Shown here: positions 5,263-22,933 of the stretch, piece after piece | How the letters are laid out: each line of letters opens with the position of its first letter | Numbering within the stretch: the stretch's first letter is position 1 | Source of the DNA: Candidatus Latescibacterota bacterium | GTDB lineage: Bacteria > Latescibacterota > UBA2968 > UBA8231 | Reading direction: 5' to 3' | Assembly: GCA_965208105.1 (NCBI GenBank) | Contig: OZ242318.1 | Coordinates: forward strand, 512,001-576,000 | DNA length: 64,000 bases | The notes under the pieces: generated by a model | Seen by the model: only the letters and a program-made list of their open reading frames with translations | What the model was told of the DNA's origin: nothing | The model's database searches: none | Made by a program: the position numbers and the translations under genes

Positions 5263-5264
5263 AT

Positions 5265-7753: not shown

Positions 7754-7926
7754 AAGTACTTACTTGTGATCGCCAAAAAAGAGATTGTCCACAATATCCT
7801 GAGTTTCAGGTCTGTGGCGATCCATGGGTTGCCAGTGGCAGTTTCGCGATCGAGTCAACGCCGGGGCAAGGCACGCGCTGCCTGCTGGCGGTTCCATTTT
7901 TATATCCAAGCCGGAGGGGACCCTCC
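7754..7926 (+). pseudogene. Deletion scar: ABC permease N-terminal fragment joined to histidine-kinase C-terminal fragment
   Basis: 7754-7813 reads KYLLVIAKKEIVHNILSFRS (permease-like start); from 7837, in another frame, GSFAIESTPGQGTRCLLAVPF parallels GHFAIESSLGQGTSCLLTIPF of the 407-1552 kinase. Confidence 0.75.
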
Positions 7927-8358
7927 ATGAATACGCAGGTGTTATTAGTAGAGGACCACGAGGCCGTGCGCCAGGAGCTGCGCTTGTTGCTTGAGCAACA
8001 AAGCGGAATTGAGGTAGTCGCCGAGGCCGGCGACGGCCGCACGGCCGTCGCCTTGGCCTCCACCTGTCTACCCGACATTGCGGTCATGGACGTTGGCCTG
8101 CCCCACCTGAATGGCATTGAGGCGACGCGACAGATACGCGTCAAGGCGCCGGGCGTGAACGTGGTGGCGCTGTCGGTGCACGCGGACCGGCGTCTTGTAG
8201 ACGGCATGTTTCAAGCAGGGGCTTCGGCGTATGTGTTGAAAACGGCGGCTACCCGCGAGTTGGTGGAAGCGATCCGGCAGGTACAGGCCGGCCGCAAGTT
8301 CGTAAGTCCCGAATTGATCGCCCTCTTCGGCGAGGACTATGGCGCGTCTTCCTTCTGA
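7927..8358 (+). pseudogene. Response regulator truncated to the REC domain (LuxR HTH lost)
   Basis: MNTQVLLVEDH...MDVGLPHLNGIEATRQIR...YVLK is paralogous to 1549-2196; it stops where the paralog begins its HTH, and LLTA is visible in a shifted frame; could still be a functional single-domain receiver. Confidence 0.75.
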
Positions 8359-8416
8359 CGGCGCATTACAGAGAAAGATTCACCGAACTGGTGTTGTGAA
8401 TCTCTCAGACACTCAG

Positions 8417-8493
8417 GCCGCAAAATCAGCTTCTCTGAAGGCAAAAATCGGGTGTTTACCCGATACCGACCAACCTGTCCTGTTGCTTAATTT
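8417..8493 (+). promoter_or_regulatory. Repeated promoter/operator box, copy 2 (upstream of S41/RiPP operon)
   Basis: GCCGCAAAATCAGCTTCTCTGAAGGCAAAAATCGGGTGTTTACCCGAT, then TAATTT at 8488. Confidence 0.75.
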
Positions 8494-8589
8494 ATCCTTA
8501 AGAGTTGCGTCGATTTTTAACAAGTTGGACAAGCAGCACTGGACGCCGAGGTAGTCGACCTACCGCCGCAAGCCTGGAGGAGAGATCGA

Positions 8590-10584
8590 ATGAAAAACAT
8601 GAACATTAATAATGTATGCCTCTTCCTCGTGGGTATAATAGTATGGCCAACCTGTGGGACGGCAAGTTGGCACCTGAAGGCGTCCGGATATGAAGTTTCC
8701 AAGGTAAGGTATTCGATTTTCGGCGAAGGGTTGAAACAACACCGAGGATACTACTTTCCCGAATACCTGCCCGCAGACCGCGCGTTACATGTCGGATTCA
8801 AGCCCATCCGCTTCCAGAAATTTTCCGCCCTGGCCGAAGCTCTCGGCGCGAAAAGCGAAAAAATCCACGCTTGGAAAACCGAATTTGAGTCTCCTGTCAG
8901 GTGCTTGGACCAGATCACCTTCTTGTATCGCCGCATATATGCCAGGAACGTCAGTGAATACACAATTTATCTCCAATCCCCTCAGACTGAACAGTGGTAC
9001 AGAAAAAGGATAATAATCCCTTTTAAGGGGTACCAGATCCCTTCATACGACGCGATTTCGCAATGGGAACCGTTGGTAGACGACGGCTCCGAAGAGGTAT
9101 CCCAGTTTTTGAGCGAGGTTAACCATTTCGATAAAATTGGCCAATTGGCGATCGTGGTTACTCCCTCGGATACGGACTTCGATTTTGTCATCGGAGACTT
9201 GCAAATAGTGGACCGGGAAATCGGCTATGCCGATTTCCATCATCCTTTTTTCGACCCGATTTTGAGCGAGGATTCCGCCCAGTACATCGAAAGAGATTCC
9301 TTTTACAATGCCTCAGGTATTCCCGCCCTGCTCCTTCCCATCAGTTGTTATGCCATGCACAGGAATTACGGGTCGGTTTTCCATTTCGACCCAGGGAATC
9401 GGGAAGTGGATGCCGGAGACATCAGGGACCTGAAAGTCAACGTTATCAAGCGAATTTTAGAGCTGTACTCATTCTATGAAGAACGCGGATTGGATAGGAA
9501 AAGCGCCCTGAACAGGTTTGCCTTCATCGAGAATTACGGGCTGGACAGAGAAGCTTTCGAGGACAGCGTCCGCGCTTTATTGGCAGATTTTCATGATGCC
9601 CATCTATCCGTAGCAAACAACGCCCATCTATCCATAGCAAACAAGAAGAACAGATGCGCTTTCAATCATCCATTGGCGCTGTACAATATCGGCGGCAAAG
9701 TCTACGTGGCGGCGGTGTTCGACTCCCTACTCGCGGACGATATAGAAGTGGGTATGAAGGTGCTCAAATTTGATGGAGTACCTGTGATTGAAGCGATAGA
9801 CAGGGAAAGCGAGCATTACCGGGGCAGCAGCAAAATAAGAAGAAGGAAAGCGACGAGAAACCTGCTCGCATGCAGGCGAGACGAAAGGGCAACATTGAAA
9901 CTTGCATCTGTTGATGGGGCAGTTAAAGACGTCCTGATTGAAGACAGGAAAGTGCGGATTCCGTCGAATCTCGTGCCGCGACACGGAGAATTCAGGGTAG
10001 AAAGTGGGATAGTGTATTTTCGTATCCGCCAATGGACCTATGACGTGTGGATCCGGTTTTTGAACCATGCGGATGAACTCGAAAGCGCGAAGGGCCTGAT
10101 CATCGATTTGAGGTCCAACGGTGGAGGTGACGGCGGCACGGTGCTAAGGATGGTATCGGCGTTCATAGACGAGAACGCGCTATGTGGGAGCGAGTACTGT
10201 CCCGCCGACGGCAGAATCGAGAGCATGGTGATAAGACCCAACGACAAATTCCATTTCGATCTGCCCGTCGTCATCCTGGCCAATGAGGCGACTGCCTGCG
10301 CAAGCGAGAACTTCATCGATATAATGAGATCTACCAATCGGGCCATCATGGTGGCGGATAGTCACACACAGGGCCTTTTTTCGTCCAGGATCGACTTGAT
10401 ATTCCCGGACGGGATGAGGATTCATACCAATAGCTTATCCAAACCGTTGAGACCCGATGGTTCTTCATACGAGGTAAAGGGGCTCGAGCCAGACATCTGG
10501 GTACACTTGAACACAATTGATGATCTGGCACATCGGGAAGACAAGATACTGCGAACCGCAAATCATCTGCTGGAAGCGCAGTAG
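8590..10584 (+). CDS. S41-family (C-terminal processing/tricorn-like) peptidase with PDZ-like domain; nucleophile position appears to be Cys
   Basis: Hydrophobic N-terminus, ADFHDAH, PDZ-like IEVGMKVLKFDGVPV, GLIIDLRSNGGG, VILANEATACASENF, YEVKGLEPDIWV; RBS GGAGGAG; AT-richer than flanks. Confidence 0.85.
   Translation: MKNMNINNVCLFLVGIIVWPTCGTASWHLKASGYEVSKVRYSIFGEGLKQHRGYYFPEYLPADRALHVGFKPIRFQKFSALAEALGAKSEKIHAWKTEFESPVRCLDQITFLYRRIYARNVSEYTIYLQSPQTEQWYRKRIIIPFKGYQIPSYDAISQWEPLVDDGSEEVSQFLSEVNHFDKIGQLAIVVTPSDTDFDFVIGDLQIVDREIGYADFHHPFFDPILSEDSAQYIERDSFYNASGIPALLLPISCYAMHRNYGSVFHFDPGNREVDAGDIRDLKVNVIKRILELYSFYEERGLDRKSALNRFAFIENYGLDREAFEDSVRALLADFHDAHLSVANNAHLSIANKKNRCAFNHPLALYNIGGKVYVAAVFDSLLADDIEVGMKVLKFDGVPVIEAIDRESEHYRGSSKIRRRKATRNLLACRRDERATLKLASVDGAVKDVLIEDRKVRIPSNLVPRHGEFRVESGIVYFRIRQWTYDVWIRFLNHADELESAKGLIIDLRSNGGGDGGTVLRMVSAFIDENALCGSEYCPADGRIESMVIRPNDKFHFDLPVVILANEATACASENFIDIMRSTNRAIMVADSHTQGLFSSRIDLIFPDGMRIHTNSLSKPLRPDGSSYEVKGLEPDIWVHLNTIDDLAHREDKILRTANHLLEAQ
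9598..9645 (+). repeat. 24-bp in-frame tandem duplication in the S41 gene
   Basis: gcccatctatccgtagcaaacaac / gcccatctatccatagcaaacaag (AHLSVANN / AHLSIANK). Confidence 0.85.
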
Positions 10585-10597
10585 AATCCATAGGCTT

Positions 10598-10900
10598 TGG
10601 AAGGCGACAAACTGTAAGAAAGGAGAACATGCCATGAAAGAGCTCATTAAGCCCAACTTGACTGAGGAAGAGTGCGAGAATAACGAGGTCGCGGCATATT
10701 GCGACCTTTATTCCTGCGCGCCCGTGAGTTGCAACCTTTGGTCGTGTCAACCCGTTTCGGGTGATGACGAGTCCGGGGACATTCTGTTCTAATTGCCAAT
10801 TGTTCAGCGGAGGCCATAACAGCGAAGGACCATTCGCCTGGAACACGTCTCTTGACCGTTTGACCCCATAACTACTTTTCGATCAGTTTGTCGCCTTCCA
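10598..10900. repeat. Perfect 17-bp inverted repeat enclosing the precursor gene
   Basis: TGGAAGGCGACAAACTG (10598-10614) is the exact reverse complement of CAGTTTGTCGCCTTCCA (10884-10900). Confidence 0.92.
10634..10792 (+). CDS. Putative RiPP precursor peptide (52 aa, Cys-rich, repeated core, acidic C-terminal follower)
   Basis: RBS AAGGAG then MKELIKPNLTEEECENNEVAAYCDLYSCAPVSCNLWSCQPVSGDDESGDILF; directly upstream of the rSAM/SPASM gene. Confidence 0.85.
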   Translation: MKELIKPNLTEEECENNEVAAYCDLYSCAPVSCNLWSCQPVSGDDESGDILF

Positions 10901-10978
10901 CGTCTTTCAGAAGCCGTCTTAGACCCTCGGTGAGGATCACTAGGAACTTTAAGGAGGCTTCTTAAAAAGGAAAATGAG

Positions 10979-12460
10979 ATGTTTAAGTTGAGCTATTATA
11001 CCTTCATCATCCCCGTAACCGAGAAGGGGATGTACCTCGCCTATAATTCATTTACCAATGCATTGCTGGAATTGGAGTGGCATGAAGGCAAGAAGATGCT
11101 GGAGTGGAAAAAGAAGGATGCCATTCCCTCTTCGGAACTCGACAGCGAAGAAAAGCGCTTTGTAAACGCTTTGCTCAACAATCACTTTCTGGTAGACGAG
11201 GGGGTTGATGAGAAAGAGCGCTTGCATCGCCGCATTTCTACCCAGAAAGAAAGGTTCTGGAGAGAACCAGCGACCATGGCGCTCACCATATTGCCGACTA
11301 TCTCGTGCAATATGGGTTGTTCCTATTGTTTTGAGGGATACAAGCCGTTCGGCAAGGTTATGAACAATGAGGTCATGGACGATATAGCCGAATTCGTGGT
11401 AAGAGAAATCAAGCAAAGCACTGTCGTCAGTTCCTTCAAAAAAATGTTCATCCAGTGGTACGGGGGGGAGCCCCTGCTGCAACCACATGTCGTCGATAGA
11501 CTTTCGGAAAAATTGTACCGAATCGCCGACGACAACCAAATCCCCTATACTTCGATGATCATTACGAACGGAACCTATCTAACGCCCGCTATATGGGATC
11601 TGTTAAAGGAAGCGAGAATTGACCGGATACAAGTGACCATTGATGGCCACAAGGACTCCCACAACAGGCAACGCCCCCTCACCTTGCCGATCATCGGCCA
11701 GGAAATAGAGGCGGGTAGCTATGACACCATACTGGAAAACCTGAAGTATTTTCCGGACAAGATGGCTCTTAATATCCGGATAAATTCGGATAAGAATATA
11801 ATCAATTCCCTGGGCGACCTCCTGGACGACCTGGAGGAAATTGGCCTGTGGCCTCAGCAGGCTAGCCATGTGAGCCTGACCCTCGCCCATAAGGAAACTC
11901 CTTATGAAGAGTCGGGAGTAGTAGACATCGAGTCTCAGTACTTGAGCCTCAAGCAGCAAACCAAGGCGCAGAAGATATTCCAGGACATGAAGCTCAATCA
12001 CTACAACAATTGGGCCTCCAAAAATAACAGGGTTTTGGCCAGGAAGCGTCTGGCCTACCCTGAACCGGCAACTTTTGTATGTGGGACTGCCTCGCTGCCT
12101 TACAGTTTTTCCATAAGTTACGACGGGCATATTCACCAGTGCATGGAGCAAGTCAACGATCCTAAAGCTAAGTCACATTACATTGGCGATACCTACAATA
12201 TCCACGATCCCCTGCGGAAAATTTTCCTGAACTGGGATAAATTCCTTCACCATCCAATGTGCACTGATTGCAGGGTACTGCCCATATGCGACATGGTTTG
12301 TCCTCACAAGGACCCGCCCGAAGCGTGCTGTGATTGGAAGGTAGACCTCAAATCGCGGTTGAAGGAGCAGTATATCGCGTCCATTGATACGCCCCACCTA
12401 ATTGAGTCTTTCGACGCAGTAGAACAACAGCGGCAGAAAGATTTCACCCTCGTGATATAG
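10979..12460 (+). CDS. Radical SAM/SPASM peptide maturase with N-terminal RRE-like region
   Basis: CNMGCSYC, WYGGEPLL, IITNGT, QVTIDG, SPASM cysteines FVCG...DGHIHQC...CTDCRVLPICDMVC...CC. Confidence 0.93.
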   Translation: MFKLSYYTFIIPVTEKGMYLAYNSFTNALLELEWHEGKKMLEWKKKDAIPSSELDSEEKRFVNALLNNHFLVDEGVDEKERLHRRISTQKERFWREPATMALTILPTISCNMGCSYCFEGYKPFGKVMNNEVMDDIAEFVVREIKQSTVVSSFKKMFIQWYGGEPLLQPHVVDRLSEKLYRIADDNQIPYTSMIITNGTYLTPAIWDLLKEARIDRIQVTIDGHKDSHNRQRPLTLPIIGQEIEAGSYDTILENLKYFPDKMALNIRINSDKNIINSLGDLLDDLEEIGLWPQQASHVSLTLAHKETPYEESGVVDIESQYLSLKQQTKAQKIFQDMKLNHYNNWASKNNRVLARKRLAYPEPATFVCGTASLPYSFSISYDGHIHQCMEQVNDPKAKSHYIGDTYNIHDPLRKIFLNWDKFLHHPMCTDCRVLPICDMVCPHKDPPEACCDWKVDLKSRLKEQYIASIDTPHLIESFDAVEQQRQKDFTLVI

Positions 12461-12474
12461 GGCCCCTAATACCC

Positions 12475-14370
12475 ATGCGAATAGCAATCATAGACAGCGG
12501 AATAGATGCGGGACACAAGCGTCTCAAGAATTGCGTGTGCAGCGGCGTTTCGCTGCGGTGCGGCGAAGAAAAACCCACCCTTAGCTACGAATACGGCGAC
12601 TGCCTGGGCCACGGGACCGCCTGTGCGAGCCTCGTGCACAAGGTGGACCCGCAGGCGGAAATAGTGGCGGTGAAGATATTTCACCGCGAGCTATCCGCCA
12701 AAGAGGAGCTACTTTGTGAAGGTATCAGATGGTGTTTGGGCAACGACATCGACGTCATCAACCTGTCCCTCGGAATCCTGACGGATAGCCCCTCGCAAGC
12801 GCTGATCGGCCTGCTCGAAGAGGCCTTTGTGAAAAACGTCGTCGTCGTCTCGGCGGCGCACAACGACTTGAGGCTGGAATGCTACCCGGCGCATTTCCAC
12901 ACCGTGTTCGGCGTGACCTGGGGAAAGGTGGACCATCACTGCTTGTATGGTTATCTGCCCGACTCGGCCATCGAATTCATCGCCAAGGGGACGATACAGC
13001 GGGTCGCATGGAAAGACGGGGGCTATTCCCTATTGAGCGGAACGAGTATGGCCTGTGCCCATTTCACCGGCATCACCGCGGGCGTACTAAGGCAGAGCCC
13101 CTCTATGTCGGTCGGGGAACTCAGGAGCCACCTTATCGGGAAGGCGGACGCGAATATTCGGGCGCTGCAACCTGGCAGCAAAATTCAGGGAGCCTTCCCG
13201 AGGATCATCAGCGGCGATCTGGACGAGGCGGGACGGAGGCTGTTCCGCTGGGAGGAAAAGATGGATTGGCTGGGGGACCTGGCCCTTTTTCCCGCCAGCG
13301 AAAAGGAGATGAGCGGCTTTGTCGAATTTCCCGGCTATTGTACGCAAAAGATAGCGAAGTACATTGACTACCCAAGAAACATGAAGAGGCAGGCCCCAAA
13401 CGGCAGCGGCAAAAGCGATGCTATCAAAACATACGACAAGATGCTGGACGCGGCGGCTTGCGAAGACTTCGACACGATGGTTCTGGGATATTTTTTTGAT
13501 CAACTCTTTGAGGCGAATATCCGCTTCGGCAACGACTTGCTGGCCGTGTGCATGGAGGCCCAAAAGAACCTCTACGTGTACGACCCCAGGTTGAAAGCTC
13601 ATATCGATAGCCTGAACGGAAGTGCCAAGCCTTTGTTTCGGCTGTATATGCCGGAGGTCAATGGCCGGTTGCACGACCGTGTCATGCAGTTTCGCCATCT
13701 GCCCAGGGTACGGGTGCCCGTCATGGCAGTGATGGGCACGAGCAACCGCCAGGGGAAGTTCACCGCGCAACTCCGGCTCAAAGACATCCTCAACAGAGAG
13801 GAATACAAAGTCTGCCACCTATCCACTGAGCCCCAGGGTGAGTTGTTCGGGGCGGATTTCAGTTTTCCCTATGGCTATAACGGGACAGTTTCCATCCACC
13901 GCAAAAAGTGGTCGATGTTCCTCCGCACCCTGCTCAAAGCCGTCCAGGAATACAACAGACCCCATATCATCCTGACCGGGACACAAGGCATGACGATTCC
14001 CCGGGCACCCAACCAAGCCCCGCTGGGAAATGAATGCGACAGCCTGGAATTCATGTACGGTGTCCATCCTGATGCTTTAGTTTGCGCCATAAATCCCCAG
14101 GATTCCATCGAACTGGTCGTCGACGCGTGCCAGGCGGCCCGGATATTCTGCGGGGCGGAACCCTTGTTTTTCATCATGACTCCCTGGATGAGAGACTACA
14201 CGCGCGCCGGCAACGGCCGCATGGTACGCCATCACCGATACCTGCATAAGGAAGAGATGGCGGAGAAAATGAACCATTTCCAGGAGGTATTGCACAAGCC
14301 GGTCATCGATATCATGGATTTGAACAATGACAAGCTAATCTTGGACGCCATCCAGGATTTCTTTTCGTGA
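12475..14370 (+). CDS. S8 subtilase fused to TIGR04066/DUF1611-like P-loop domain (peptide maturation protein)
   Basis: Triad motifs IAIIDSGID, GHGTACA, SGTSMA and oxyanion AAHN; no signal or propeptide; C-terminal VMAVMGTSNRQGKFTAQL...STEPQGELFG. Confidence 0.8.
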   Translation: MRIAIIDSGIDAGHKRLKNCVCSGVSLRCGEEKPTLSYEYGDCLGHGTACASLVHKVDPQAEIVAVKIFHRELSAKEELLCEGIRWCLGNDIDVINLSLGILTDSPSQALIGLLEEAFVKNVVVVSAAHNDLRLECYPAHFHTVFGVTWGKVDHHCLYGYLPDSAIEFIAKGTIQRVAWKDGGYSLLSGTSMACAHFTGITAGVLRQSPSMSVGELRSHLIGKADANIRALQPGSKIQGAFPRIISGDLDEAGRRLFRWEEKMDWLGDLALFPASEKEMSGFVEFPGYCTQKIAKYIDYPRNMKRQAPNGSGKSDAIKTYDKMLDAAACEDFDTMVLGYFFDQLFEANIRFGNDLLAVCMEAQKNLYVYDPRLKAHIDSLNGSAKPLFRLYMPEVNGRLHDRVMQFRHLPRVRVPVMAVMGTSNRQGKFTAQLRLKDILNREEYKVCHLSTEPQGELFGADFSFPYGYNGTVSIHRKKWSMFLRTLLKAVQEYNRPHIILTGTQGMTIPRAPNQAPLGNECDSLEFMYGVHPDALVCAINPQDSIELVVDACQAARIFCGAEPLFFIMTPWMRDYTRAGNGRMVRHHRYLHKEEMAEKMNHFQEVLHKPVIDIMDLNNDKLILDAIQDFFS

Positions 14371-14390
14371 ACGGGCGTGAGGACGGCACC

Positions 14391-14684
14391 ATGAGAGAAG
14401 CTATCGAGCAGCGATTGTACGAACTGATAGGGACGTTTGGAGACCAACCGATCAACTGCTCTGTTGAGAGCGAAGTGCGAAGGATGCTCCATATCATCTT
14501 GAGCGAGTCCATACAAGCGATGGAATTCGTCATCGCCATTGAGAACGAATTCGAGATCGAGTTCGACGACGAAGACATCTCCATCCAATTCTTCCTCGAC
14601 CCGGATCATATCATCCAATCCGTGCTGAGAGGTCTGGCGCGGAAGGAGGCGGATGGCCTAACATCATCAAGTGCTGTCACCTGA
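14391..14684 (+). CDS. Acyl-carrier-protein-like protein
   Basis: Small and acidic; LSESIQAMEFVIAIENEFEIEFDDEDI matches ACP helix II/III with the Ser retained (ESI for DSL). Confidence 0.8.
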   Translation: MREAIEQRLYELIGTFGDQPINCSVESEVRRMLHIILSESIQAMEFVIAIENEFEIEFDDEDISIQFFLDPDHIIQSVLRGLARKEADGLTSSSAVT

Positions 14685-14695
14685 GGAGGTCTGCC

Positions 14696-16096
14696 ATGTT
14701 CAAGACCATTCTGTTCAAGGAAATCAAGGGCCAATTAGGCACGGTGACATTCGCCGTCTGGATGGGCGTCTCGTGCTTTCTGGTCTGGATGGCCCTGGAG
14801 AGCGGTTATTCGAGATACGAGCACAAGCATCAGCAATACCTCGATATGGACAGGGTGGTCAAAGACGGCCTCAGCAAAGAATACGACGTCAACAAGGCGG
14901 AAGAGGAGCTCTTCCGGGTTTTGCGGCAGCCGTCGGTGTTGAGCGCAGTTGTCTACGGGCTGGAAGGCAAGATGCCGATCTATATGAGTGTCAATCCCAA
15001 CGGCGTACGCTCCGGTTCGGGGTCAGGCACGGAAGAATCCGTATTGAGCCTGTTCGGGGAGCTGGATTTTCTCCTGGTCATCGAGCTGATTCTCGGGCTG
15101 ATGGCCGTGGTGCAGGCGGCCAGTCTGGTGTCTTCGGAGAGGGAAAACGGCACTCTGAAGCTGATATTGGCCAACCCGGTTTCCCGCAGCACCGTCTTGC
15201 TGGGCAAGTGTATGGGCGGATACGCTGTCGTCGCCTTCGTCTTTGTGTTTTCCTCCTTTATCGGGTTTTTGCTTCTCTCGATCAGGGGGTTTCCACTTTT
15301 CGAGTCGGACGTGCTCGCGCCGATACTCCTGATCTTGGCCGGGAGCCTGGTCTATTTGCTGTGCATCTTTCTGGTGGGGATGGTCGGTTCTATCCTGTTC
15401 CTGAACACTCAAACGGCCTTGATATTGAGCGTGTCGATCTGGGCCGCGCTGTCTTTTCTCGTTCCCAAAAGCGCCCGGATCGCGGCCGAGTTGATCCGCC
15501 CGGTAGAGGACGAGCGGACGGTTTACTTGCGTCAGAAGCACGCCCGTGAAGACCTGATCAGGGCCCAGCATGAGGAAATGAGCGAGAATTACCGCCAGGA
15601 GTTGACTCCAGAATGGCTGATGGCCAACTTCGCGACCTTGGCAGAGGAAGGCGCGGCAGTTTGGAAGAAATACAGCGACCGGATCTCCAAAGACCTGACC
15701 ACCATCGCCGAGGACCACCACCGGGAGAAGAAAGCGCAGGAATCTCTGGGTAAGGTGCTGTCCCGGGTATCCCCCGCGGGCAGTTTCCGGCTGCTCTTGG
15801 CGAATTTGTCCGGTACGGGCGACCAGGTGAAGTGGGAATTACTGCAAGTGGCCTGGAACTACCAGAAAACGGTCAATGACAAGGTCTTCGCCAAAAAACC
15901 CTTGATCGCTGTCCAGAATATGAGTTTCCCCCATGATATGGGTACAGAGGATCCGCCGCCCCCACCTCTGGTCATGGCGCCGCCCCTCGGCAGTGTCTTG
16001 ACCGAATCCGCGCTAGACACAGCCTTATTATGCGTCTATGCCGTCATGTTGTTCATGCTGGCCTATATGCTGTTCCTGCGGCGCTCTATCGTGTAA
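14696..16096 (+). CDS. ABC-2-type transporter permease, paralog 1
   Basis: MFKTILFKEIK start, VSSERENGTLKLILANPVSRSTVLLGK motif, multiple TMs, large extracytoplasmic loops; RBS GAGGAGG. Confidence 0.9.
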   Translation: MFKTILFKEIKGQLGTVTFAVWMGVSCFLVWMALESGYSRYEHKHQQYLDMDRVVKDGLSKEYDVNKAEEELFRVLRQPSVLSAVVYGLEGKMPIYMSVNPNGVRSGSGSGTEESVLSLFGELDFLLVIELILGLMAVVQAASLVSSERENGTLKLILANPVSRSTVLLGKCMGGYAVVAFVFVFSSFIGFLLLSIRGFPLFESDVLAPILLILAGSLVYLLCIFLVGMVGSILFLNTQTALILSVSIWAALSFLVPKSARIAAELIRPVEDERTVYLRQKHAREDLIRAQHEEMSENYRQELTPEWLMANFATLAEEGAAVWKKYSDRISKDLTTIAEDHHREKKAQESLGKVLSRVSPAGSFRLLLANLSGTGDQVKWELLQVAWNYQKTVNDKVFAKKPLIAVQNMSFPHDMGTEDPPPPPLVMAPPLGSVLTESALDTALLCVYAVMLFMLAYMLFLRRSIV

Positions 16097-16112
16097 TAGA
16101 GGAGTCATCCCC

Positions 16113-17516
16113 ATGTTCAAGACTATTCTGTTCAAGGAAATCAAGGGCCATTTAGGCACGGTGACATTCGCCGTCTGGATGGGCGTCTCGTGCCTGGTGG
16201 TATGGATGGCTCTGGAGAGCGGCTATTCGAGATACGAGCACAAGCATCAGCAATACCTCGATCAGGAACGAGAGGCGAAAAAAAGCCTCAGTAAAGAATA
16301 CTTTGCGTTCTGGCCGGAAGAGGAAATATTCCGGGTGCTGCGCCAGCCGTCGGTGTTGAGCACCATCGTCTATGGGCTTGAAGGTGAGCTGCCGGTTTAT
16401 CTGAGCGTCAACCCCAACGGCGTCCGGTCCGGTTCGAAGGGGATGGGTGGAGCTATGTCGCGCCTGTTGGGAGAGCTGGATTTTCTCCTGGTCATCGAGA
16501 TGGTGTTCGGGCTGATGGCCGTCGTGCTGGCGGCCACTCTGGTGTCGTCGGAGGGAGAAAACGGGACGCTCAAGCTGATATTGGCCAACCCGGTCTCCCG
16601 CAGCACGGTCTTGTTGGGGAAGGGGCTGGGCGCCTTCGCCATCATCGCCTTTGTCTTTGTGTTTTCCACTTTTATCGGGCTTTTGTTCCTGTCGGTGAAG
16701 GGGTTTCCCCTCCTCGAACGGGAGGTGCTCGCGTCACTGCTCGTGATTGTGGCGGGAAGTCTGGTTTATTTGCTGTGCGTTTTCCTGGTGGGGATGATCT
16801 GCTCCATCCTGTTTTTGAACACCCGGGTGGCCTTGGTGCTGAGCGTCTTGCTGTGGGCGGTGCTGTCTTTTCTGCTGCCCAAAAGCGCCGGGACTGCGGC
16901 GGAGTTGATGCGCCCGGCAGAAGACGGTTGGACCGTTTACTTGCGTCAGAAATCCGCCCGTGAAGCCCATCTCAAGGCCCACCACGAGGAAGTGAACAAG
17001 CATTACCCCCATCTGGGTCCAGCCCCGGACTCGAGGGATCTGGACTACCCAGGGATTACGGAGACTGCCGTAGCGGCTTGGGGGAAGTACAGCGACCGGA
17101 TCGCCAAAGAAGTGACCACCATCGCCGAGGATCACAATCGCAACAAGCAAGCCCAGGAAGCCCTGGGGAAGGTGCTGTCCCGGCTATCCCCCGCAAGCAG
17201 TCTCCGCCTGCTGTTGGCCAATGTGGCCGGCACGGGCGACCAGGTGAAGCGCAACTTCCTGCAAGCGGCCTGGAACTATCAGAATACGGTTGACGACAAA
17301 GTCTTCTCAAAAAGAATCCATATCACTATCAGGAAGAATCAGGGTTGGCCCTGGGACATGGGTGCAGAGCGACCGCCGCCCCTGCCCCCGCTCCTGCCGC
17401 CGTCTCTCGAGAGTGTCTTGGTGGAGTCGGCGTTAGAAATCGCTTTATTGTTCGTCTATTCCGTCTTCCTGTTCATGCTGGCCTATATGCTTTTCATTCG
17501 TCGATCCATCGCGTAG
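16113..17516 (+). CDS. ABC-2-type transporter permease, paralog 2
   Basis: Near-identical N-terminus and motifs to paralog 1; start at 16113 after AGGAG. Confidence 0.9.
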   Translation: MFKTILFKEIKGHLGTVTFAVWMGVSCLVVWMALESGYSRYEHKHQQYLDQEREAKKSLSKEYFAFWPEEEIFRVLRQPSVLSTIVYGLEGELPVYLSVNPNGVRSGSKGMGGAMSRLLGELDFLLVIEMVFGLMAVVLAATLVSSEGENGTLKLILANPVSRSTVLLGKGLGAFAIIAFVFVFSTFIGLLFLSVKGFPLLEREVLASLLVIVAGSLVYLLCVFLVGMICSILFLNTRVALVLSVLLWAVLSFLLPKSAGTAAELMRPAEDGWTVYLRQKSAREAHLKAHHEEVNKHYPHLGPAPDSRDLDYPGITETAVAAWGKYSDRIAKEVTTIAEDHNRNKQAQEALGKVLSRLSPASSLRLLLANVAGTGDQVKRNFLQAAWNYQNTVDDKVFSKRIHITIRKNQGWPWDMGAERPPPLPPLLPPSLESVLVESALEIALLFVYSVFLFMLAYMLFIRRSIA

Positions 17517-17531
17517 TAATGGAGTCTTATC

Positions 17532-18959
17532 ATGTTCAAGACCATTATGTTCACGGAAATCAGGAGTCGCTTGGGCACGGTAACTTTCTCCCTGTGGCTG
17601 GGCGTCTCGTGCTTGGTGGTATGGATGGCTCTCGAGAGCGGCTACTCGAGATACGAGCACAAGCATCAGCAGTACCTCGATCTGAAACGGGCGGCCCAAG
17701 ATGGCCTCAGCAAAGCATACATGCCGGTCGTAGCGGAAGAGGACATATTCCGGGTTCTGCGTGAGCTCTCCGTGTTGAGTGCCATCGTCTACGGGCTGGA
17801 AGGCGAGATGCCGGTCTATATGAGCGTCAATCCCAACGGCGTACAGCCCGGGGCGGGGATAGCGGATAAATCCTTGTTGGACCTGTTGGGAGAGTTGGAT
17901 TTTCTCCTGGTCATCGAGCTGATTCTCGGGTTGATGGCCGTGGTGCAGGCAGCCACTCTGGTGTCGTCGGAAGAGGGAAACGGGACGCTCAAACTGATGT
18001 TGGCCAACCCGGTCTCTCGCAGCACCGTCCTGTTGGGGAAGGGGCTGGGCGCCTTCGCCGTCATCGCCTTCACCCTTTTGTTTTCCACCCTTTTCGGACT
18101 TTTTTTGCTCTCGGTCCGGGGATTTCCGCTCTTCGAGGCAGCGGTGCTCGCGCCGATACTCTTGATCTTGACGGGGAGCCTGGTCTATCTGCTCGTCATC
18201 TTTCTGATCGGGCTGACCTGCTCTATTCTGTTTCTGAATTCCCAGGTAGCTTTGATCCTGAGTGTCTCGCTCTGGGCTGCGCTGTCTTTTCTCGTGCCCC
18301 AAAGCGCCTGGACTACGGCGGAGTTGATCCGCCCGGCAGAGAACGAGCGGACGGTTTATGTGCGGCAGAAATACGCCCGCGAAGCCCATCTCAATGCCTA
18401 CCACGAGGAATTGAACAAGCGTTACCCCCACCTGCAACCTGACGCAGAGGGCAATGCGGACTGGTCGGGGGTCAACCAGACCGAGTTGACGAAGGACGCG
18501 GTGGCGGTTTGGGCGAAATACAGCGACCGGATCGCCAAAGAAGTGACCACCATCGCCGAGAACTACCACCGGAACAAGCAAGCGCAGGAAGCCCTCGGTA
18601 GGGTGCTGTCCCGGGTCTCCCCCACCGGCAGTTTCCGCCTACTCTTGGCCAACCTGGCCGGTACGGGCAACCAGGTGAGGTGGAAATTCTTGCAAGCGGC
18701 CTGGGACTACCAGAATATGGCAAACGATAAAGTCTTCTCAAAAGATCCCATGATCACTATCGGACCCTCGAGTTGGTGGCCCAGTATTATGCGGGGTGCA
18801 GATAACCCTCCTCCCCCACCTCCCCCACCACCGGTCATGGTTCCGTCCCTCGGCAGCGTCTTGACAGAGTCGGCCTTGGACATGGCCATGCTGTTCATTT
18901 ACGCCGTCGTGCTCTTCATGTTGGCGTATTCGCTGTTCATGCGTCGGTCCATTGTATAG
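17532..18959 (+). CDS. ABC-2-type transporter permease, paralog 3
   Basis: Same architecture; SEEGNGTLKLMLANPVSR; poly-Pro linker before the last TM. Confidence 0.9.
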   Translation: MFKTIMFTEIRSRLGTVTFSLWLGVSCLVVWMALESGYSRYEHKHQQYLDLKRAAQDGLSKAYMPVVAEEDIFRVLRELSVLSAIVYGLEGEMPVYMSVNPNGVQPGAGIADKSLLDLLGELDFLLVIELILGLMAVVQAATLVSSEEGNGTLKLMLANPVSRSTVLLGKGLGAFAVIAFTLLFSTLFGLFLLSVRGFPLFEAAVLAPILLILTGSLVYLLVIFLIGLTCSILFLNSQVALILSVSLWAALSFLVPQSAWTTAELIRPAENERTVYVRQKYAREAHLNAYHEELNKRYPHLQPDAEGNADWSGVNQTELTKDAVAVWAKYSDRIAKEVTTIAENYHRNKQAQEALGRVLSRVSPTGSFRLLLANLAGTGNQVRWKFLQAAWDYQNMANDKVFSKDPMITIGPSSWWPSIMRGADNPPPPPPPPPVMVPSLGSVLTESALDMAMLFIYAVVLFMLAYSLFMRRSIV

Positions 18960-18996
18960 TCCGCCGCTCCCATTGCATGAGGATGAGTTGAGAGTT

Positions 18997-20745
18997 ATGA
19001 AACGCGTTCCTGACTCGGAACCTGGGATGATCAGAGCTACACTGAAGAGAATCGGATTATACCGCGCAATTATGGCCAACGGACTGAATATATTGCTTCT
19101 GTGTATTATCGCCGCGGCAGTGGTAACGTTGACCATAGCCAAGCCCATCGTGTTTTCCAGGATAATTGACAAGGGAATCCTCAGTGAGGACTGGAGCGTG
19201 GTCCGCTCGCACTGCGTCTACTTCCTCATTATTGCATTGGGCTTGAGTCTTTTCGGGTTAGCTCACTCTTTAGTCGCGTCGGTAATACACAACAAAATAT
19301 CCTTGATAATCAAACAGGTTCTCCTGGAACGGATCTTTCTCCTGGACGCCGGATTCTTCCACACGAACAAGACCGGAGACGTCATTACCAAGCTGGACAA
19401 CGACGTATCGAGCATCCAGACCTACATCATGTCGGTCCTGAACGCCTCCATGAACAATTTTATCAGCTTTCTAGGGGCGATGATCTATATCGGCTACGTG
19501 CAATGGAGGATGTTGATCGTCGGGTTCCTGGTGACCCCGTTTGTGGGTCTGGCCATTTACGCGTTCCGCAACGTGTTATACTCCAAGGACAAGAAGACCC
19601 GGGAGCGGAAGTCCGACGTAAATGACGCGATAATAAACGCCGTCGACCATCAGCTTTACCTGAGGAAGGTCGGATTGGACTCGAGATCGCTGTCGAAGTG
19701 CAAATGGACCTTGGACCAGTACCGGGTCGCATCCATCTTTTACGACCTATGGCGCGGCGGCAGCGGGTCGCTAAACAACCTCCTCCTTGCCGTCGGCTAT
19801 ATTGTTACCATCGGCTACGGTTCGTGGCTGGTCTTCAAAGGCATGCTCAGCGTCGGCAATCTTTTCGCATTTCTAACCCTGCGCACCATGTTCCTTGCCC
19901 CGCTGACGGTCTTCAAGGAAATCTACAGTGGGTACTTTTCGACTAAATCCGCATTCAAGCGCCTGGACGATTTCTTCTGCCATCGGATCGAGAAGGGTCT
20001 GGAACGCATGGACAACTCGAAACCCGAATCGTTTGGAGAGATCTGTTTGAGCAACGTATCGTTTGCCTATCCAGGGCAACACTGTCTGTTGAACCACATT
20101 GACGTTGAATTCGGCAGGGGCTGGAATATCCTGGCGGGTAGAAACGGTGCGGGGAAATCGTCATTGATCGACCTGCTCATGAAGATTTCGTCTCCAAGGG
20201 AGGGGCGCATCTTGGTCGACGGCGTAGATATTGGCTCGCTCAACAATCAGTCATGGAGGTCCAACATCAGTGCCATGCCTCAAACCACGTACTTGTTCAA
20301 AGGGTCGTTGCGGGAGAACATTCGCCTGTATGACGAGGGCATAACCGACGGTCGAATTCAGGCCGTGCTGAACCGCCTGAGCTTCGATTTCGATCCCGAA
20401 AAGCTACCAGCAGGGCTCGATACGAACATTATGGAGGGAGGGACCAATTTTTCTGGGGGCCAGCGCCAAAAAATCGCGATCGCCAGGACCGCCCTCAAAG
20501 ACACCCCTATCTACATCTTCGATGAACCCCTGTCCAGTCTGGATATGCGTTCGCGCGGCCTGGCCTTGGAGTACTTAAAAAAGGCGCTCAAAGGCAAGAT
20601 CGTCCTAATCGTTTCACACGATGACATGGGCGAATATACGGATCGGGAGTACAGAATGAAAGACGGGGCCATCGTGACCACCGCCGCAAACGGGTTGGAT
20701 CGTGTTCCAGAGGAGGGTTCCAATACTTTGCATATATCAGTCTGA
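18997..20745 (+). CDS. ABC exporter, fused TMD + ATPase (no C39 domain)
   Basis: FFHTNKTGDVITKLDND, GRNGAGKS, FSGGQRQKIAIAR, IYIFDEP; start uncertain (18952/18997/19027). Confidence 0.9.
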   Translation: MKRVPDSEPGMIRATLKRIGLYRAIMANGLNILLLCIIAAAVVTLTIAKPIVFSRIIDKGILSEDWSVVRSHCVYFLIIALGLSLFGLAHSLVASVIHNKISLIIKQVLLERIFLLDAGFFHTNKTGDVITKLDNDVSSIQTYIMSVLNASMNNFISFLGAMIYIGYVQWRMLIVGFLVTPFVGLAIYAFRNVLYSKDKKTRERKSDVNDAIINAVDHQLYLRKVGLDSRSLSKCKWTLDQYRVASIFYDLWRGGSGSLNNLLLAVGYIVTIGYGSWLVFKGMLSVGNLFAFLTLRTMFLAPLTVFKEIYSGYFSTKSAFKRLDDFFCHRIEKGLERMDNSKPESFGEICLSNVSFAYPGQHCLLNHIDVEFGRGWNILAGRNGAGKSSLIDLLMKISSPREGRILVDGVDIGSLNNQSWRSNISAMPQTTYLFKGSLRENIRLYDEGITDGRIQAVLNRLSFDFDPEKLPAGLDTNIMEGGTNFSGGQRQKIAIARTALKDTPIYIFDEPLSSLDMRSRGLALEYLKKALKGKIVLIVSHDDMGEYTDREYRMKDGAIVTTAANGLDRVPEEGSNTLHISV

Positions 20746-20753
20746 TATTCAGA

Positions 20754-21812
20754 ATGAGCTACCAGATGTCGACTAAAGAGTTATACTTACCGCTCAATCC
20801 CAATCCTCCGATTAGAGTCTATCTGCATCATGCCTACCCTCTGTCAATTTTATCAAGTACCGAAGAGTATTTGCCCTGGTTCCGAAGCAACTTTGTTCAA
20901 CTGTATAGCGGGGGTCCCGATCATATCGATTTCCTCGTACCCATGCTTACACACGCAGACCATCCTCAGATCTACTATTCTCCTCTTCTGAACGTGGTTC
21001 GGCTCAATAGAAAAATCGTCGATTTGATAAATGCCGATTCTGAAATCTGGAGATTCATTGTCGACTGTATAACAGAGGGCTTCTACGTCGATATCGAGGT
21101 TGATGAATATCACGTTCCTTTTACTCGCGCATTCCATAATTTTCATACTGGACATTCTCTTCTGATTCATGGCTACAATACTGCTCAGGAAAAATTCAGT
21201 GCCATCGGTTACGATCGAAACGGCAAATACGGCATCCAGCTTGTCGATTTTGCCAGCACACTCAAAGCTTACGGTAGCCGGGAAAGTAAAAATCACATGG
21301 CAATAGTGTCTCATGCTTTAAGACAGAAAACGGGCCGCGATAGCAACATCCAGTGCGAATTCACGCTCGAGTTGGTGGTTGACATGCTCAAGGACTACAT
21401 CCACTCAATCAACACGCTTGACCGGTTGAAGTTGGTTTTGAGATCGAACTATAGATCGAATTCCCTGCGTTTTGGAATTGAGGCCGTCAGAAAATTGCGA
21501 TTTGAACCTAGTGCGGCGAATGCGCCTTTGGATCTGCGTCCTTCTCACTGTCTCTGGGAGCATAAGAAATGTATGGCCGAGAGGGTTCAGTACCTGGTAG
21601 AAAACGGATATTTGGACAAGGTTGGAAATTTGGTATTTGAGTTCGGAAAAATTGCTAAAATGGCGGAATCACTCAGGCTGCTGGCAATCAAGTACAACTT
21701 GCAGAAACAACGAAAAATACTCCATAAAATGGACAACCTGAGAAACAAAATAGTTGAGGGTGAGAAATTCCTCATAAAAAATTTACTGGACCGACTACCG
21801 TCATGCCCATGA
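20754..21812 (+). CDS. Hypothetical protein, BtrH_N/C39-like papain-fold candidate
   Basis: GFYVDIEVDEYHVP...HSLLIHGYN...F..IGYDRNGKY pattern resembles BtrH N-terminal-like proteins; visibly very AT-rich. Confidence 0.55.
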   Translation: MSYQMSTKELYLPLNPNPPIRVYLHHAYPLSILSSTEEYLPWFRSNFVQLYSGGPDHIDFLVPMLTHADHPQIYYSPLLNVVRLNRKIVDLINADSEIWRFIVDCITEGFYVDIEVDEYHVPFTRAFHNFHTGHSLLIHGYNTAQEKFSAIGYDRNGKYGIQLVDFASTLKAYGSRESKNHMAIVSHALRQKTGRDSNIQCEFTLELVVDMLKDYIHSINTLDRLKLVLRSNYRSNSLRFGIEAVRKLRFEPSAANAPLDLRPSHCLWEHKKCMAERVQYLVENGYLDKVGNLVFEFGKIAKMAESLRLLAIKYNLQKQRKILHKMDNLRNKIVEGEKFLIKNLLDRLPSCP

Positions 21813-21913
21813 ATAGCTTTACCAATTTGCAAAAAATTCATAAGACAGTCCGTTCGCGACCCGTAACCTGATGCCGGCGGCGCTTCCGATCCTTTAACCG
21901 GAAAGGCCGCTCC

Positions 21914-21987
21914 GCCGCAACATCAGTTTTCCGAAGGCAAAATCAGGTGTTCGCCCGATTGAGAAGCACCGTTGCCGTCGCTATGTT
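21914..21987 (+). promoter_or_regulatory. Repeated promoter/operator box, copy 3
   Basis: GCCGCAACATCAGTTTTCCGAAGGCAAAATCAGGTGTTCGCCCGATTGAGAAGCACCGT, then TATGTT at 21982; shares the extended 3' part with copy 1. Confidence 0.75.
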
Positions 21988-22062
21988 AGATAGCGAAAGG
22001 TCACTCAGGTCCGCGCAGCATCCCGCCTCAGCGGGGCAGCCTGATTGAAAAGGAGACGGTTC

Positions 22063-22420
22063 GTGCCCTCCAGTGCTTTCATCCTGTCTCGTTTCCAGCC
22101 GAACCACGCCCCAGAGGTCACGGCGTTTCTCAACCTGTCGCAACAGCATCAGTGGATGAGACGAGCCCTCCCCGAACGCCGGTGGAGTACGCCGGTGAGG
22201 TGGACCTGGTCGTGCACGGCCAGGTCCACCTGAACTTTGGCGAGAACATACCCGGTATAGGCCTGGTGCTCTGAATGGGCTTCTCCCTGGAGGGAGCACC
22301 TTGCTGATCACCGACGGCATCGGCAAACAAGCTCTTGAATCAGCCGTGTGGGCAGGTACATCCGCACGTTCGGGCGCCTCGGACGAGGGCGCGGCGAGTA
22401 TTTCTCTACCGGAAGTTTGA
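22063..22420 (+). pseudogene. Decayed 6-bladed beta-propeller (DUF5128/NHL-like) gene
   Basis: RBS AAGGAG; broken frames give VEYAGEVDLVVHGQVHLNFGE..., LLITDGIGKQAL and GRYIRTFGRLGRGRGEY (G..IR.IGR.G.GPGEY-like blade motif). Confidence 0.55.
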
Positions 22421-22561
22421 AGGAGACGATACCGTGCAAGCGAGGTGTCATTGGCCCTAGATTTAGATTGCAGATAATCCGGTGTCACCTGATTTCGGAA
22501 GGGCTGATGAGGCGCGGGAGAATGCTTTTTCTGGGCAAACCTTGCCGAGTTGGAGGACGCG

Positions 22562-22933
22562 ATGCCGATCGTTCAATTGGAACTTGTGATTAGGGGGAAT
22601 TTCGAGCGCATCAGCGGCGACACCCTGCAGGAGCTTGCCGATGAGCTCGGCGAGTATTTTCAGACGGACAGGGGCGCTACCTGGGTCAAGGTCGACTACC
22701 TTCCATTCGAGCAATATGCGGAAAATCGCGCCGAGCTCGGAGGCGAGGTAAAGCCCACCCTGGTCTACGTGCTTAAATACCGGCTGCCGCCACGGGATCG
22801 ACTGGCGCAGGAAGCGAAGGATCTGGCGCGGATCGTTGCAAGGCGCCTGCAACGCCCCGAAGAAAACACCCATATAATTTTCGAACCTGACGGGGTCGGA
22901 AGGGTGGCTTTCGGCGGCGAGCTGGTCACCTGA
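22562..22933 (+). CDS. Tautomerase-superfamily (4-OT-like) protein
   Basis: N-terminal MP (catalytic Pro1), two beta-alpha-beta units, C-terminal GRVAFGG; RBS GGAGG. Confidence 0.7.
   Translation: MPIVQLELVIRGNFERISGDTLQELADELGEYFQTDRGATWVKVDYLPFEQYAENRAELGGEVKPTLVYVLKYRLPPRDRLAQEAKDLARIVARRLQRPEENTHIIFEPDGVGRVAFGGELVT

Follow-up and report, generated by a model that had tools for sequence, protein, structure and literature searches.

A divergent, arginase-free cluster of the FlmA peptide family with a clade-specific BtrH-like gene in a Candidatus Latescibacterota genome

Introduction

Positions 512,001 to 576,000 of contig OZ242318.1 from a Candidatus Latescibacterota bacterium, a stretch of 64,000 nucleotides that is called the window throughout, hold at 8590-21812 a run of genes in which a small Cys-bearing peptide is followed by a radical S-adenosylmethionine (rSAM)/SPASM enzyme, a subtilase fused to a P-loop domain and a protein resembling acyl carrier proteins (ACPs). 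Such a locus raises the question of which peptide family it belongs to and what chemistry its enzymes may carry out on the peptide. The original prediction had taken it for a new system making a ribosomally synthesised and post-translationally modified peptide (RiPP) and had linked it with the clostridial CLI_3235/CcpM-type clusters. In our study the claim of a RiPP cluster was borne out, the precursor and the rSAM enzyme standing nearest to FlmA and to FlmE/OhkG, and we hold with high confidence that this is a RiPP cluster of the FlmA or 'DD(I/V)LF' family. A wholly new system it is not; the nearest named families are FlmA (NF052472), FlmE/OhkG (NF052473) and the 'DD(I/V)LF' orphan RiPPs described in the article PMC12703449. 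The cluster is a divergent, arginase-free variant of the named FlmA/FlmE family, located outside Bacteroidota, to which a clade-specific BtrH-like gene is added.

The article just named (published in 2025 and considered here as its text without the supplements) describes an orphan precursor type of Bacteroidota with a conserved C-terminal DD(I/V)LF, and includes the flm cluster from Flagellimonas meridianipacifica and the ohk cluster from Ohtaekwangia koreensis. In that text only the peptide arginases are characterised; according to its authors neither the core nor the cleavage sites are known, and the same is said of the function of the tail and of the end products. A follow-up is announced, and 57 precursors are listed in supplementary tables. 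The open-access articles searched, without the supplements of PMC12703449, reported no product for the FlmA or the CcpM family. The CcpM TIGR models were found to be named in genome-mining work whose accessible text described no product chemistry, and a literature search on OhkG, DDILF/DDVLF and DgcN together with DUF1611 gave nothing relevant.

Precursor peptide and family assignment

The 52-aa precursor, MKELIKPNLTEEECENNEVAAYCDLYSCAPVSCNLWSCQPVSGDDESGDILF, is laid out as a MKELIKP leader motif, an acidic spacer, a core with four Cys residues and an acidic follower ending in GDILF. Its core consists of two 10-residue repeats, CDLYSCAPVS and CNLWSCQPVS, which are identical at 7/10 positions and place a Cys at each fifth residue. 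The repeated core of the original prediction is therefore upheld, and it recurs in the two species-representative genomes with the nearest rSAM enzymes, L003 (an unclassified metagenome-assembled genome, MAG; rSAM 46% identical) and L008 (a Gemmatimonadetes MAG; 45%), where the precursors MKVLIKP...MCDLGPCLPLQCTLGACNPLSGDTSDGDILF and MKVLIKP...YCDNICGANSKSCSVNTCISNSKDDEVDEILF are again two-fold repeated. Bacteroidota come after these two at 27-37% rSAM identity. The nearest rSAM sequences overall are metagenomic, at 79-84% identity, followed by one step at 53% and another at 44-45%.

Against the FlmA model NF052472 the precursor scored 28.3 bits (E 1.5e-6; 25.3 bits in the genome scan) for a cut-off of 30, and it was the sole FlmA-type match in the genome. 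On alignment with 11 relatives, K2, L4, P7, the first Cys (C23) and the penultimate Leu (L51) were found to be invariant in 12/12 precursors, and within the core the Cys were the only residues kept. The window precursor carries the shared leader MK(E/V)L(I/V)KP together with the first Cys, and its first eight residues, MKELIKPN, are identical in the precursor of L004, a Bacteroidales MAG. Its GDILF end matches four of the five positions of the DD(I/V)LF motif, L003 ending likewise in GDILF and L008 in DEILF. FlmA-type precursors adjoin the rSAM gene in 4/5 Bacteroidota genomes searched, as they do in L003 and L008.

The family-defining clusters in the article text of PMC12703449 combine an arginase with a core containing Arg, and the window cluster shows neither. 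Its core has no Arg, and a search of the 94%-complete genome for the peptide arginase domain PF12640 found none, the control genomes giving no match either. The same domain is present in L004, L005 and L010.

Radical SAM/SPASM enzyme

The rSAM enzyme aligned with the FlmE/OhkG model NF052473 over model positions 1-471 of 481 (378 bits, E 6e-113), and this was the best of 57 matching models, the next best reaching 196 bits. The curated cut-offs of FlmA (28.3/30 bits) and of FlmE (378/500 bits) are both missed, which speaks against a membership in the strict sense. The CxxxCxxC motif is formed by C110/C114/C117, and the C-terminal SPASM pattern comprises seven Cys, namely C368, G383-x4-C388, C428-x2-C431-x5-C437-x3-C441 and C450. 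All of these Cys and G383 were invariant in 18/18 rSAM homologues; the SPASM Pfam family PF13186 was not reported for the enzyme at E 0.01 or better. About 100 residues lie N-terminal to the radical SAM core, at the usual site of peptide-binding domains.

After FlmE, the best models of the enzyme are maturases of Cys-rich peptides, i.e. TIGR04463, Clo7bot, CefB 'Cys-every-fifth', geopeptide, PapB and CcpM. The scores against the respective cut-offs were 108.8/340 bits for PapB (ranthipeptide maturase), 51/425 for the SCIFF thioether maturase and 46.7/453 for QhpD. We consider it fairly probable that the enzyme cross-links the four core Cys, most likely through S-C thioethers, since the near rSAM families all act on Cys-rich peptides and Cys alone is conserved in the core. 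Two points have to be set against this. The thioether chemistry is drawn from family resemblance, with PapB and the SCIFF maturase well below their cut-offs; and the Ser found five positions after each Cys in the window core is not kept in L003, for which reason no acceptor residue can be named.

The enzyme might instead form C-C or C-O links, epimers or other Cys changes, with disulfides arising after export. The chemistry of SPASM enzymes is varied, the window and L003 cores have no conserved acceptor in common, and Tyr and Trp occupy equivalent repeat positions in the window core, all of which would suit such a product. These aromatic positions, however, are Gly in L003, and the two observations that favour thioethers, the conservation of Cys alone over 12 precursors and the Cys-rich substrates of the nearest named families, make this an unlikely reading.

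Subtilase-DUF1611 fusion and ACP-like protein

In the fusion protein, the S8 domain (residues 1 to about 230) starts directly at the catalytic domain, without a signal peptide or prodomain, and its triad D7/H46/S191 was invariant in 5/5 sequences. Its best model is the leader protease QhpE, with 125 bits for a cut-off of 165. Residues from about 256 to 631 form a DUF1611/DgcN-like two-domain module, for which the Pfam score (PF07755, 30 bits; cut-off 25), the two-domain fold and the P-loop GTSNRQGKFT, kept in 4/5 fusions, all agree. The predicted model of the fusion had a predicted local distance difference test score (pLDDT) of 72. When residues 256/266-629 of this model were compared by VIA-align, the matches were 2g0t (Z 23.5), 2obn (Z 21.6) and 7xrj (Z 20.1) over about 300 residues, the last being deposited as the N-acetyltransferase DgcN; the P-loop fold was also similar to dethiobiotin synthetase and MinD-type NTPases (Z 13.7-14.5). 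A Foldseek search with the whole fusion model gave only subtilisins among the matches listed, and the C-terminal 372 residues produced chance-level matches only against the sequences of the PDB.

The ACP-like gene overlaps the stop codon of the fusion gene by 4 bp. In its protein, S46 and S48 were invariant in 4/4 sequences, S48 being visible also in the L012 homologue, and residues 46-70 align to positions 35-59 of a 78-position ACP model, which brings S48 to the ACP serine position; for this assignment we take the E. coli Ser36 numbering to apply. Generic ACP models were matched weakly in 4/4 of these proteins.

Synteny was read by hand from lists of open reading frames (ORFs) and family scans, 11 loci being inspected of 80. 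A full-length S8-DUF1611 fusion lies beside the rSAM gene in eight of these 11 and S8 alone in the other three; the ACP-like gene stands directly 3' of the fusion in 5/8 fusion loci, the small ORFs of L005 not being included in the count. Because the S8 domain is fused to the DgcN-like module so widely and the carrier-like protein is translationally coupled to it, a 'cut-and-cap' activity may tentatively be suggested, in which the leader would be cut and the new end acylated from the carrier. A number of observations weigh against such a function. The ACP-like protein reached only 17.7 bits with PF00550, below the gathering cut-off of 20.8, and TIGR04069 gave no match to it and matched just one of four relatives (E 0.039); an ACP-loading enzyme is not found in the cluster; the fusion loci of L007 and L013 have a different gene 3' of the fusion and no adjacent ACP-like gene; and the P-loop of the L005 fusion is degenerate. 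As had been predicted, no polyketide synthase, nonribosomal peptide synthetase (NRPS) or phosphopantetheinyl transferase is present among the window genes scanned. In favour of a carrier role, the genome does have one ACPS-family transferase match, its only one, about 3.5 Mb from the cluster. A predicted complex of the DUF1611 module with the ACP-like protein had a score of 0.00 and spoke neither for nor against a pairing.

The C-terminal part of the fusion also matched TIGR04066 (E 1e-11; 44.4 bits, cut-off 200), in agreement with the proposed homology of the P-loop domain to that family. In L085, a clostridial CcpM-type locus from a genome with a true TIGR04066 member (492 bits), an rSAM gene, the TIGR04066 gene, a gene for an 83-aa ACP-related protein and an S8 subtilase gene follow one another on one strand, and passages of PMC10731318 describe a Paenibacillus polymyxa cluster with the same module parts. 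Of the earlier link to CLI_3235/CcpM clusters, the shared module of rSAM, DUF1611-like, ACP-like and S8 proteins therefore remains, and the membership falls, as all the curated models fail. In the hidden Markov model check, TIGR04068 scored 78.9/500 and TIGR04066 44.4/200 bits, and TIGR04065 and TIGR04069 had no match to the window proteins.

On this evidence it is very improbable that the cluster is a CLI_3235/CcpM member which has moved into a diderm host. The four-part module in nearly the same order, known from L085 and from the cluster in PMC10731318 as far as it is described there, and the TIGR04066 E value would be expected in that case, but so would passing scores with the four models; moreover, the precursor has the terminal motifs of FlmA, and the rSAM enzyme reaches 378 bits with FlmE against 79 with CcpM. 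The FlmA-type and CcpM-type systems are best seen as sisters with a common maturation module.

BtrH-like protein

The model of the BtrH-like protein (pLDDT 91) is predicted to have the full-length bipartite fold of CcbD, AziU3 and CtaG, with a papain-like and a helical part. Foldseek matched it to AziU3 (1.4e-9), CtaG (1.8e-6) and CcbD (1.6e-4), and VIA-align to CcbD (Z 18.1, 291 residues), AziU3 (Z 17.3) and CtaG (Z 15.9, 273 residues), the next match having a Z of 8.9. The profile of the family gave only a weak AziU3 match (E 0.5) against PDB sequences. One relative was recovered by word-based search and 3720 by profile search.

Two of the top three structural matches are carrier-protein-dependent amide-forming enzymes, according to the PDB titles and to parts of PMC12865890, where CtaG, BtrH and AsbE appear as papain-like ligases with carrier-protein-bound donors and a Cys-His-Asp triad. 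The conserved residues of the BtrH-like protein are Q49, H134, Y215, E269-H270-K271 (WEHKK motif), R277 and E337, and its conserved His corresponds, in the alignment, to that of the BtrH_N core. An acyltransferase role is weakened by the absence of Cys from the invariant and near-invariant columns of the 56- and 14-sequence alignments, and by the distribution described below. The Cys-His-Asp triad appears to be missing from the protein, the exact equivalent position being one that we infer. In P0083, a KS-C-A-PCP megasynthase of 2689 aa, a BtrH-like domain occupies the C-terminal residues 2337-2660, with a second BtrH_N match near residue 2000; this layout suggests that members of the Cys-less family can follow carrier domains and serve there for release or transfer.

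The gene occurs in the window, L003 and L008, exactly one match being found per L003 and L008 genome and that inside the cluster, which served as a positive control. It was not found in 5/5 Bacteroidota genomes with FlmA-type clusters, although the ACP-like gene is present in two of them, and this rules the BtrH-like protein out as the carrier protein's general partner. The two candidate acyltransferases of the original prediction are thus reasonable by fold (DgcN-like, and CcbD/CtaG/AziU3-like), while the BtrH-like one is without the catalytic Cys of its family.

The DUF1611, ACP-like and BtrH-like proteins may also have nothing to do with acylation of the peptide, the acidic protein being an adaptor or chaperone, the P-loop module a partner of S8 or a carboxylate activator, and the BtrH-like protein responsible for non-acyl chemistry or peptide binding. 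Such roles would sit well with the ACP-like score below the PP-binding cut-off, with the lack of a loading enzyme in the cluster, with the likeness of the P-loop fold to dethiobiotin synthetase and MinD, with the lack of a conserved Cys in the BtrH-like family, and with AziU3, presumably not a transacylase, as its best Foldseek match. The invariant Ser48 at the ACP serine in 4/4 proteins and in L012, the closest full-length folds, which are DUF1611 proteins including DgcN, and the location of the BtrH-like domain after the carrier domains of P0083 point the other way, and we regard a role of these three proteins outside acylation as possible, if somewhat unlikely.

The L003 BtrH-like protein was seen to be fused to a further 390-aa domain, of which P0072 and P0073 are free-standing relatives. 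ORFs of 285 aa and 356 aa in L010 and of 401 aa in L004 were compared as DUF1611 or BtrH-like relatives and proved unrelated.

S41-like protein

The S41-like protein matched PF03572 with 72.1 bits for a cut-off of 24. The matching domain follows an N-terminal part of 450 aa without an assigned family, and a PDZ domain was not detected. Its gene is present in 6/6 loci checked for it, and a hydrophobic, signal-like N-terminal segment occurs in all six sequences (window, L003, L004, L005, L008 and L010). In the same six, C570 of the motif TACASE, D336 and H338 were invariant. Profile alignment places Cys570 at the middle residue of SA(S/A)ASE in a solved Ctp chain, a position which we take to be that of the nucleophile from the 25-residue Ser-Lys spacing in Ctp, Prc and D1 protease. 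The Lys position of TxG(K), 25-26 residues past C570, is L, T, S or A, and no Lys is found there.

The S41 family is built to read free C-terminal tails and the (D/E)ILF end of the precursors is conserved, which makes this protein the natural reader of the tail. Both residues of the Ser-Lys dyad are lacking, and the protein also resembles non-catalytic IRBP modules; these two findings weigh against a protease and mean that it might only bind the tail. The S41-like proteins may accordingly use Cys for catalysis on the S41 scaffold, or they may serve to bind the tail. Of the two proteases expected for the cluster, S8 is upheld by its triad in 5/5 sequences; for the other the S41 fold is present, and the catalytic Ser and Lys are not, Cys standing in the Ser position.

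Organization and origin of the locus

All ten genes of the predicted co-oriented, packed run were confirmed. They lie on the + strand with intergenic gaps of -58 to 186 bp, and their coordinates agree with those first given exactly or to within a few bases (Table 1). The unit reaches upstream to about 407, by which the kinase, the LuxR regulator, the outer-membrane efflux protein (OEP), the NEW3 pair, the ATPase and the receiver are added.

Table 1. Genes of the cluster and of its upstream extension, in window coordinates
Gene	Position	Strand	Description
PAS/HisKA_3 sensor kinase	407-1552	+	Pfam
LuxR-type response regulator	1549-2196	+	Pfam
TolC-like OEP	2408-3751	+	PF02321 106 bits
Two NEW3/NPCBM_assoc-domain proteins	3748-5262, about 5262-6797	+	PF10633 50 and 49 bits
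ABC ATPase	7020-7742	+	nucleotide-binding subunit only; PF00005 108.6 bits
Receiver-only response regulator	7711-8358	+	PF00072 only, without DNA-binding domain
S41-like peptidase	8590-10584	+	664 aa; C-terminal Pfam PF03572, 72 bits
Precursor	10634-10792	+	52 aa; aaggag ribosome-binding site upstream
Radical SAM/SPASM enzyme	10979-12460	+	493 aa; NF052473 378 bits and PF04055
S8 + DUF1611 fusion	12475-14370	+	631 aa; PF00082 75 bits, PF07755 30 bits
ACP-like protein	14367-14684	+	105 aa, acidic; weak ACP matches, best E 1e-6
Three ABC-2-type permeases	14696-16096, 16038-17516, 17532-18959	+	PF12679 87-100 bits; PF12040 (DUF3526) in 2/3
ABC exporter half-transporter	18952-20745	+	PF00664 and PF00005; no peptidase domain
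BtrH_N-like protein	20754-21812	+	352 aa; PF14399 28.6 bits, just below 29.7 cut-off

The kinase and LuxR genes, the S41-like gene, the precursor, the rSAM enzyme, the S8-DUF1611 fusion, the ACP-like gene, the ABC exporter and the BtrH-like gene are common to the window, L003 and L008. The cluster is more than a chance assembly because this gene set recurs syntenically in L003 and L008, where the rSAM enzyme is just 45-46% identical. L003 and L008 have in addition MacB-type permeases and glycosyltransferases. The extra genes there (L008 11478-12113 and 16766-18016; L003 20373-21443) encode a pentapeptide-repeat protein between the rSAM enzyme and the S8 fusion and enzymes of the GT1/GT28 or GT4 type. 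The Bacteroidota loci have in common the S41-like gene, the precursor, the rSAM enzyme and S8(-DUF1611), with the ACP-like gene in some. Further genes in these loci encode NusG-like and AraC regulators as well as arginases, JmjC hydroxylases and enzymes of the GT2 type.

In L004, equal-length ORFs of 307 aa at 6783-7706 and 15940-16863 flank the precursors, the rSAM gene, S8-DUF1611, the ACP-like gene and a second rSAM gene. The first of them is an IS1595-type transposase and the second has the same pattern of an overlapping minus-strand ORF, a layout that resembles a composite transposon.

The G+C content of the window is 0.48-0.57 across 8-22 kb vs 0.60-0.67 from 22 kb onward. With the rSAM enzyme as query, no relative was found in one genome of the same genus or in 24 of the same family, and the 16 genomes of the same class gave one match only, 41% identical and with an internal stop. 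This relative, L084 (G035:C2:640549-641592), covers residues 125-472, is interrupted by TAA and is probably a decayed copy. The genome itself has a single rSAM copy and a single precursor copy. As the G+C contrast, the lack of related rSAM enzymes in the 25 genomes of the same genus and family and the single genomic copies go together, the locus fits a horizontally acquired island.

A promoter and terminator scan of 6700-22600 gave 13 promoter-like sites where 11.6 were expected from shuffles, and 24 terminator-like sites where 17.4 were expected, neither being clearly higher. The 186-bp spacer 3' of the precursor gene folded no better than shuffles (z -0.2). From 22000 to 64000 the window was covered as a list of ORFs; the few genes scanned there, beside the cluster, include one for a BPD_transp_1 permease on the minus strand at 23099-23980.

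Probable export, self-protection and regulation

The half-transporter probably exports the modified peptide, as judged from its sequence; among the NCBIfam models it comes closest to those for type I secretion and bacteriocin exporters, and a homologous exporter is found in L003, L008, L010 and L012. The ABC-2 permeases and the ATPase starting at 7020 form a probable immunity or efflux pump, this ATPase being the likely partner of all three permeases. In L004 an ABC ATPase gene lies immediately 5' of two ABC-2 permease genes, one of them also with DUF3526. The OEP, whose presence agrees with the diderm, TolC-containing host that had been proposed, and the two NEW3 proteins are probable parts of envelope export or immunity, tied to the cluster by their co-orientation.

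The kinase/LuxR pair at the start of the unit probably regulates the cluster, and HisKA_3 kinase and LuxR regulators stand at the same position in L003 and L008. The receiver-only regulator fits less well with such a role: it aligns with residues 3-126 of the L003 LuxR-type regulator at 43% identity and lacks the output domain. A 71-aa ORF after it (8339-8554) showed no match to the missing helix-turn-helix part, and its L003 and L008 counterparts have the LuxR helix-turn-helix. The kinases of L003 (2964-5636) and L008 (3176-5923) were seen to carry PDZ domains, where the window kinase has PAS. Binding of free C-termini is a property of PDZ domains, and by analogy these kinases might be sensors of the DILF tail once it is released, or of the product.

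The product could then be a signal or metal-binding peptide that is sensed by the adjacent two-component system, and no antibiotic. The conservation of kinase and LuxR-type regulators beside the cluster in the window, L003 and L008, the PDZ domains of the latter two kinases and the Cys-rich core are in line with this. The clusters nevertheless come with dedicated efflux or immunity-like pumps of several components, as is typical of toxic products (the window and L004 have ABC-2 pumps, and L003, L005, L008 and L010 have MacB/FtsX), and a CLI_3235-family peptide is reported to be antibacterial in a passage of PMC10731318; a signalling or metal-binding product is accordingly judged to be quite improbable.

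Proposed pathway and its significance

The gene content, family relationships, conserved residues and folds set out above suggest an outline of which we infer each chemical step, and which as a whole we hold to be somewhat favoured. The precursor would be docked through its MKELIKP leader and the rSAM enzyme would, with fair probability, link the four Cys to carbons of the repeated core. The cytoplasmic S8 domain would then be likely to remove the leader. The fused DgcN-like module and the translationally coupled ACP-like protein might, as a tentative suggestion, transfer an acyl group to the freed N-terminus, and the clade-specific Cys-less BtrH-like protein might provide a second, optional tailoring step. 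Export of the peptide by the half-transporter is again likely. In the periplasm, the S41-like enzyme with its signal segment would read the free ...DILF tail and remove the acidic follower, a step to which we give an even chance. Self-protection, or passage of the product through the outer membrane, would fall to the ABC-2 pump and its ATPase together with the NEW3 proteins and the OEP.

A bolder form of this outline would be a hybrid of ribosomal and carrier-protein chemistry without NRPS or polyketide synthase. Here the DgcN-like module would cap or extend the freed N-terminus from the ACP-like protein, the BtrH-like protein would perform a second carrier step, and a Cys-type S41 enzyme, with His338 as a possible base, would clip the tail or ligate or cyclise the peptide through a thioester. 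We consider it speculative and unlikely. If true, it would define the chemistry of the rSAM/DUF1611/ACP-like/S8 module that is common to FlmA-type and CcpM-type systems.

The window cluster is a stripped-down version of the FlmA type. It has a single precursor with a simple repeated core and, among the genes scanned, none for an arginase, a hydroxylase or a glycosyltransferase, and for this reason it offers a clean system for the FlmE-type rSAM enzyme, for the S8/DUF1611/ACP-like module and for the role of the tail. The questions that are made testable in this way are the chemistry of FlmE-type rSAM enzymes, the function of the module shared by Gram-negative FlmA-type and Gram-positive CcpM-type systems, and the tail as a handle for S41-like proteins. 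If borne out, a part played by a carrier protein in the making of a RiPP would matter to enzymology in general, and so would an S41 enzyme with Cys in place of Ser.

Comparison with known systems

In comparison to the FlmA family, the window cluster shares the MKELIKP motif, the first Cys, the acidic follower and the C-terminal (D/E)ILF of the precursor, the full-length alignment of the rSAM enzyme, and the neighbouring S41-like, S8(-DUF1611) and ABC exporter genes; the ACP-like gene and the ABC-2 pump are found in some relatives. It differs in that its host is not one of the Bacteroidota, the nearest relatives being the Gemmatimonadetes MAG and the unclassified MAG. The cluster genes scanned show no JmjC hydroxylase, GT2 or NusG-like gene, and no arginase was found. 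The core is made of two 10-residue repeats with Cys at each fifth residue and is without Arg, and a BtrH-like gene is added, seen only in the clade of the window.

With the CcpM system there is a likeness in the module itself (rSAM, DUF1611-like P-loop, small ACP-related protein and S8) and in a Cys-rich precursor. In that system S8 and DUF1611-like proteins are separate genes, whereas they are fused in the window; the precursor family differs, and no S41-like or BtrH-like gene is present in the 4-kb stretch seen. In the Qhp pathway, by which quinohemoprotein amine dehydrogenase is matured, the rSAM enzyme QhpD and the subtilase QhpE act before export. The window resembles it in an rSAM/SPASM enzyme with a Cys-bearing peptide, a prodomain-less cytoplasmic S8 leader protease and later export. 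The scores for QhpE, QhpD and PapB are, however, all below cut-off (125/165, 46.7/453 and 108.8/340), no dehydrogenase context is present in the window, and the window peptide would be a free product with a follower.

The BtrH-like protein has the whole bipartite fold and the conserved His of CtaG, CcbD and BtrH, and a carrier-like protein is encoded in its operon, whereas the catalytic Cys of those enzymes has no conserved counterpart in the window family, which has a WEHKK motif of its own instead. From the S41 proteases Ctp, Prc, Tsp and CPAF, the S41-like protein has retained the fold and the DLRxNGGG and TAxAxE motifs; it differs in a Cys for the nucleophile Ser, in the lack of the Lys and of a detectable PDZ domain, and in its 450-aa N-terminal part. 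The DUF1611 module, finally, has the two-domain fold and the GTxxxxGKxT loop of DgcN and other DUF1611 proteins, and in the window it forms one protein with a protease and has a carrier-like protein as its partner.

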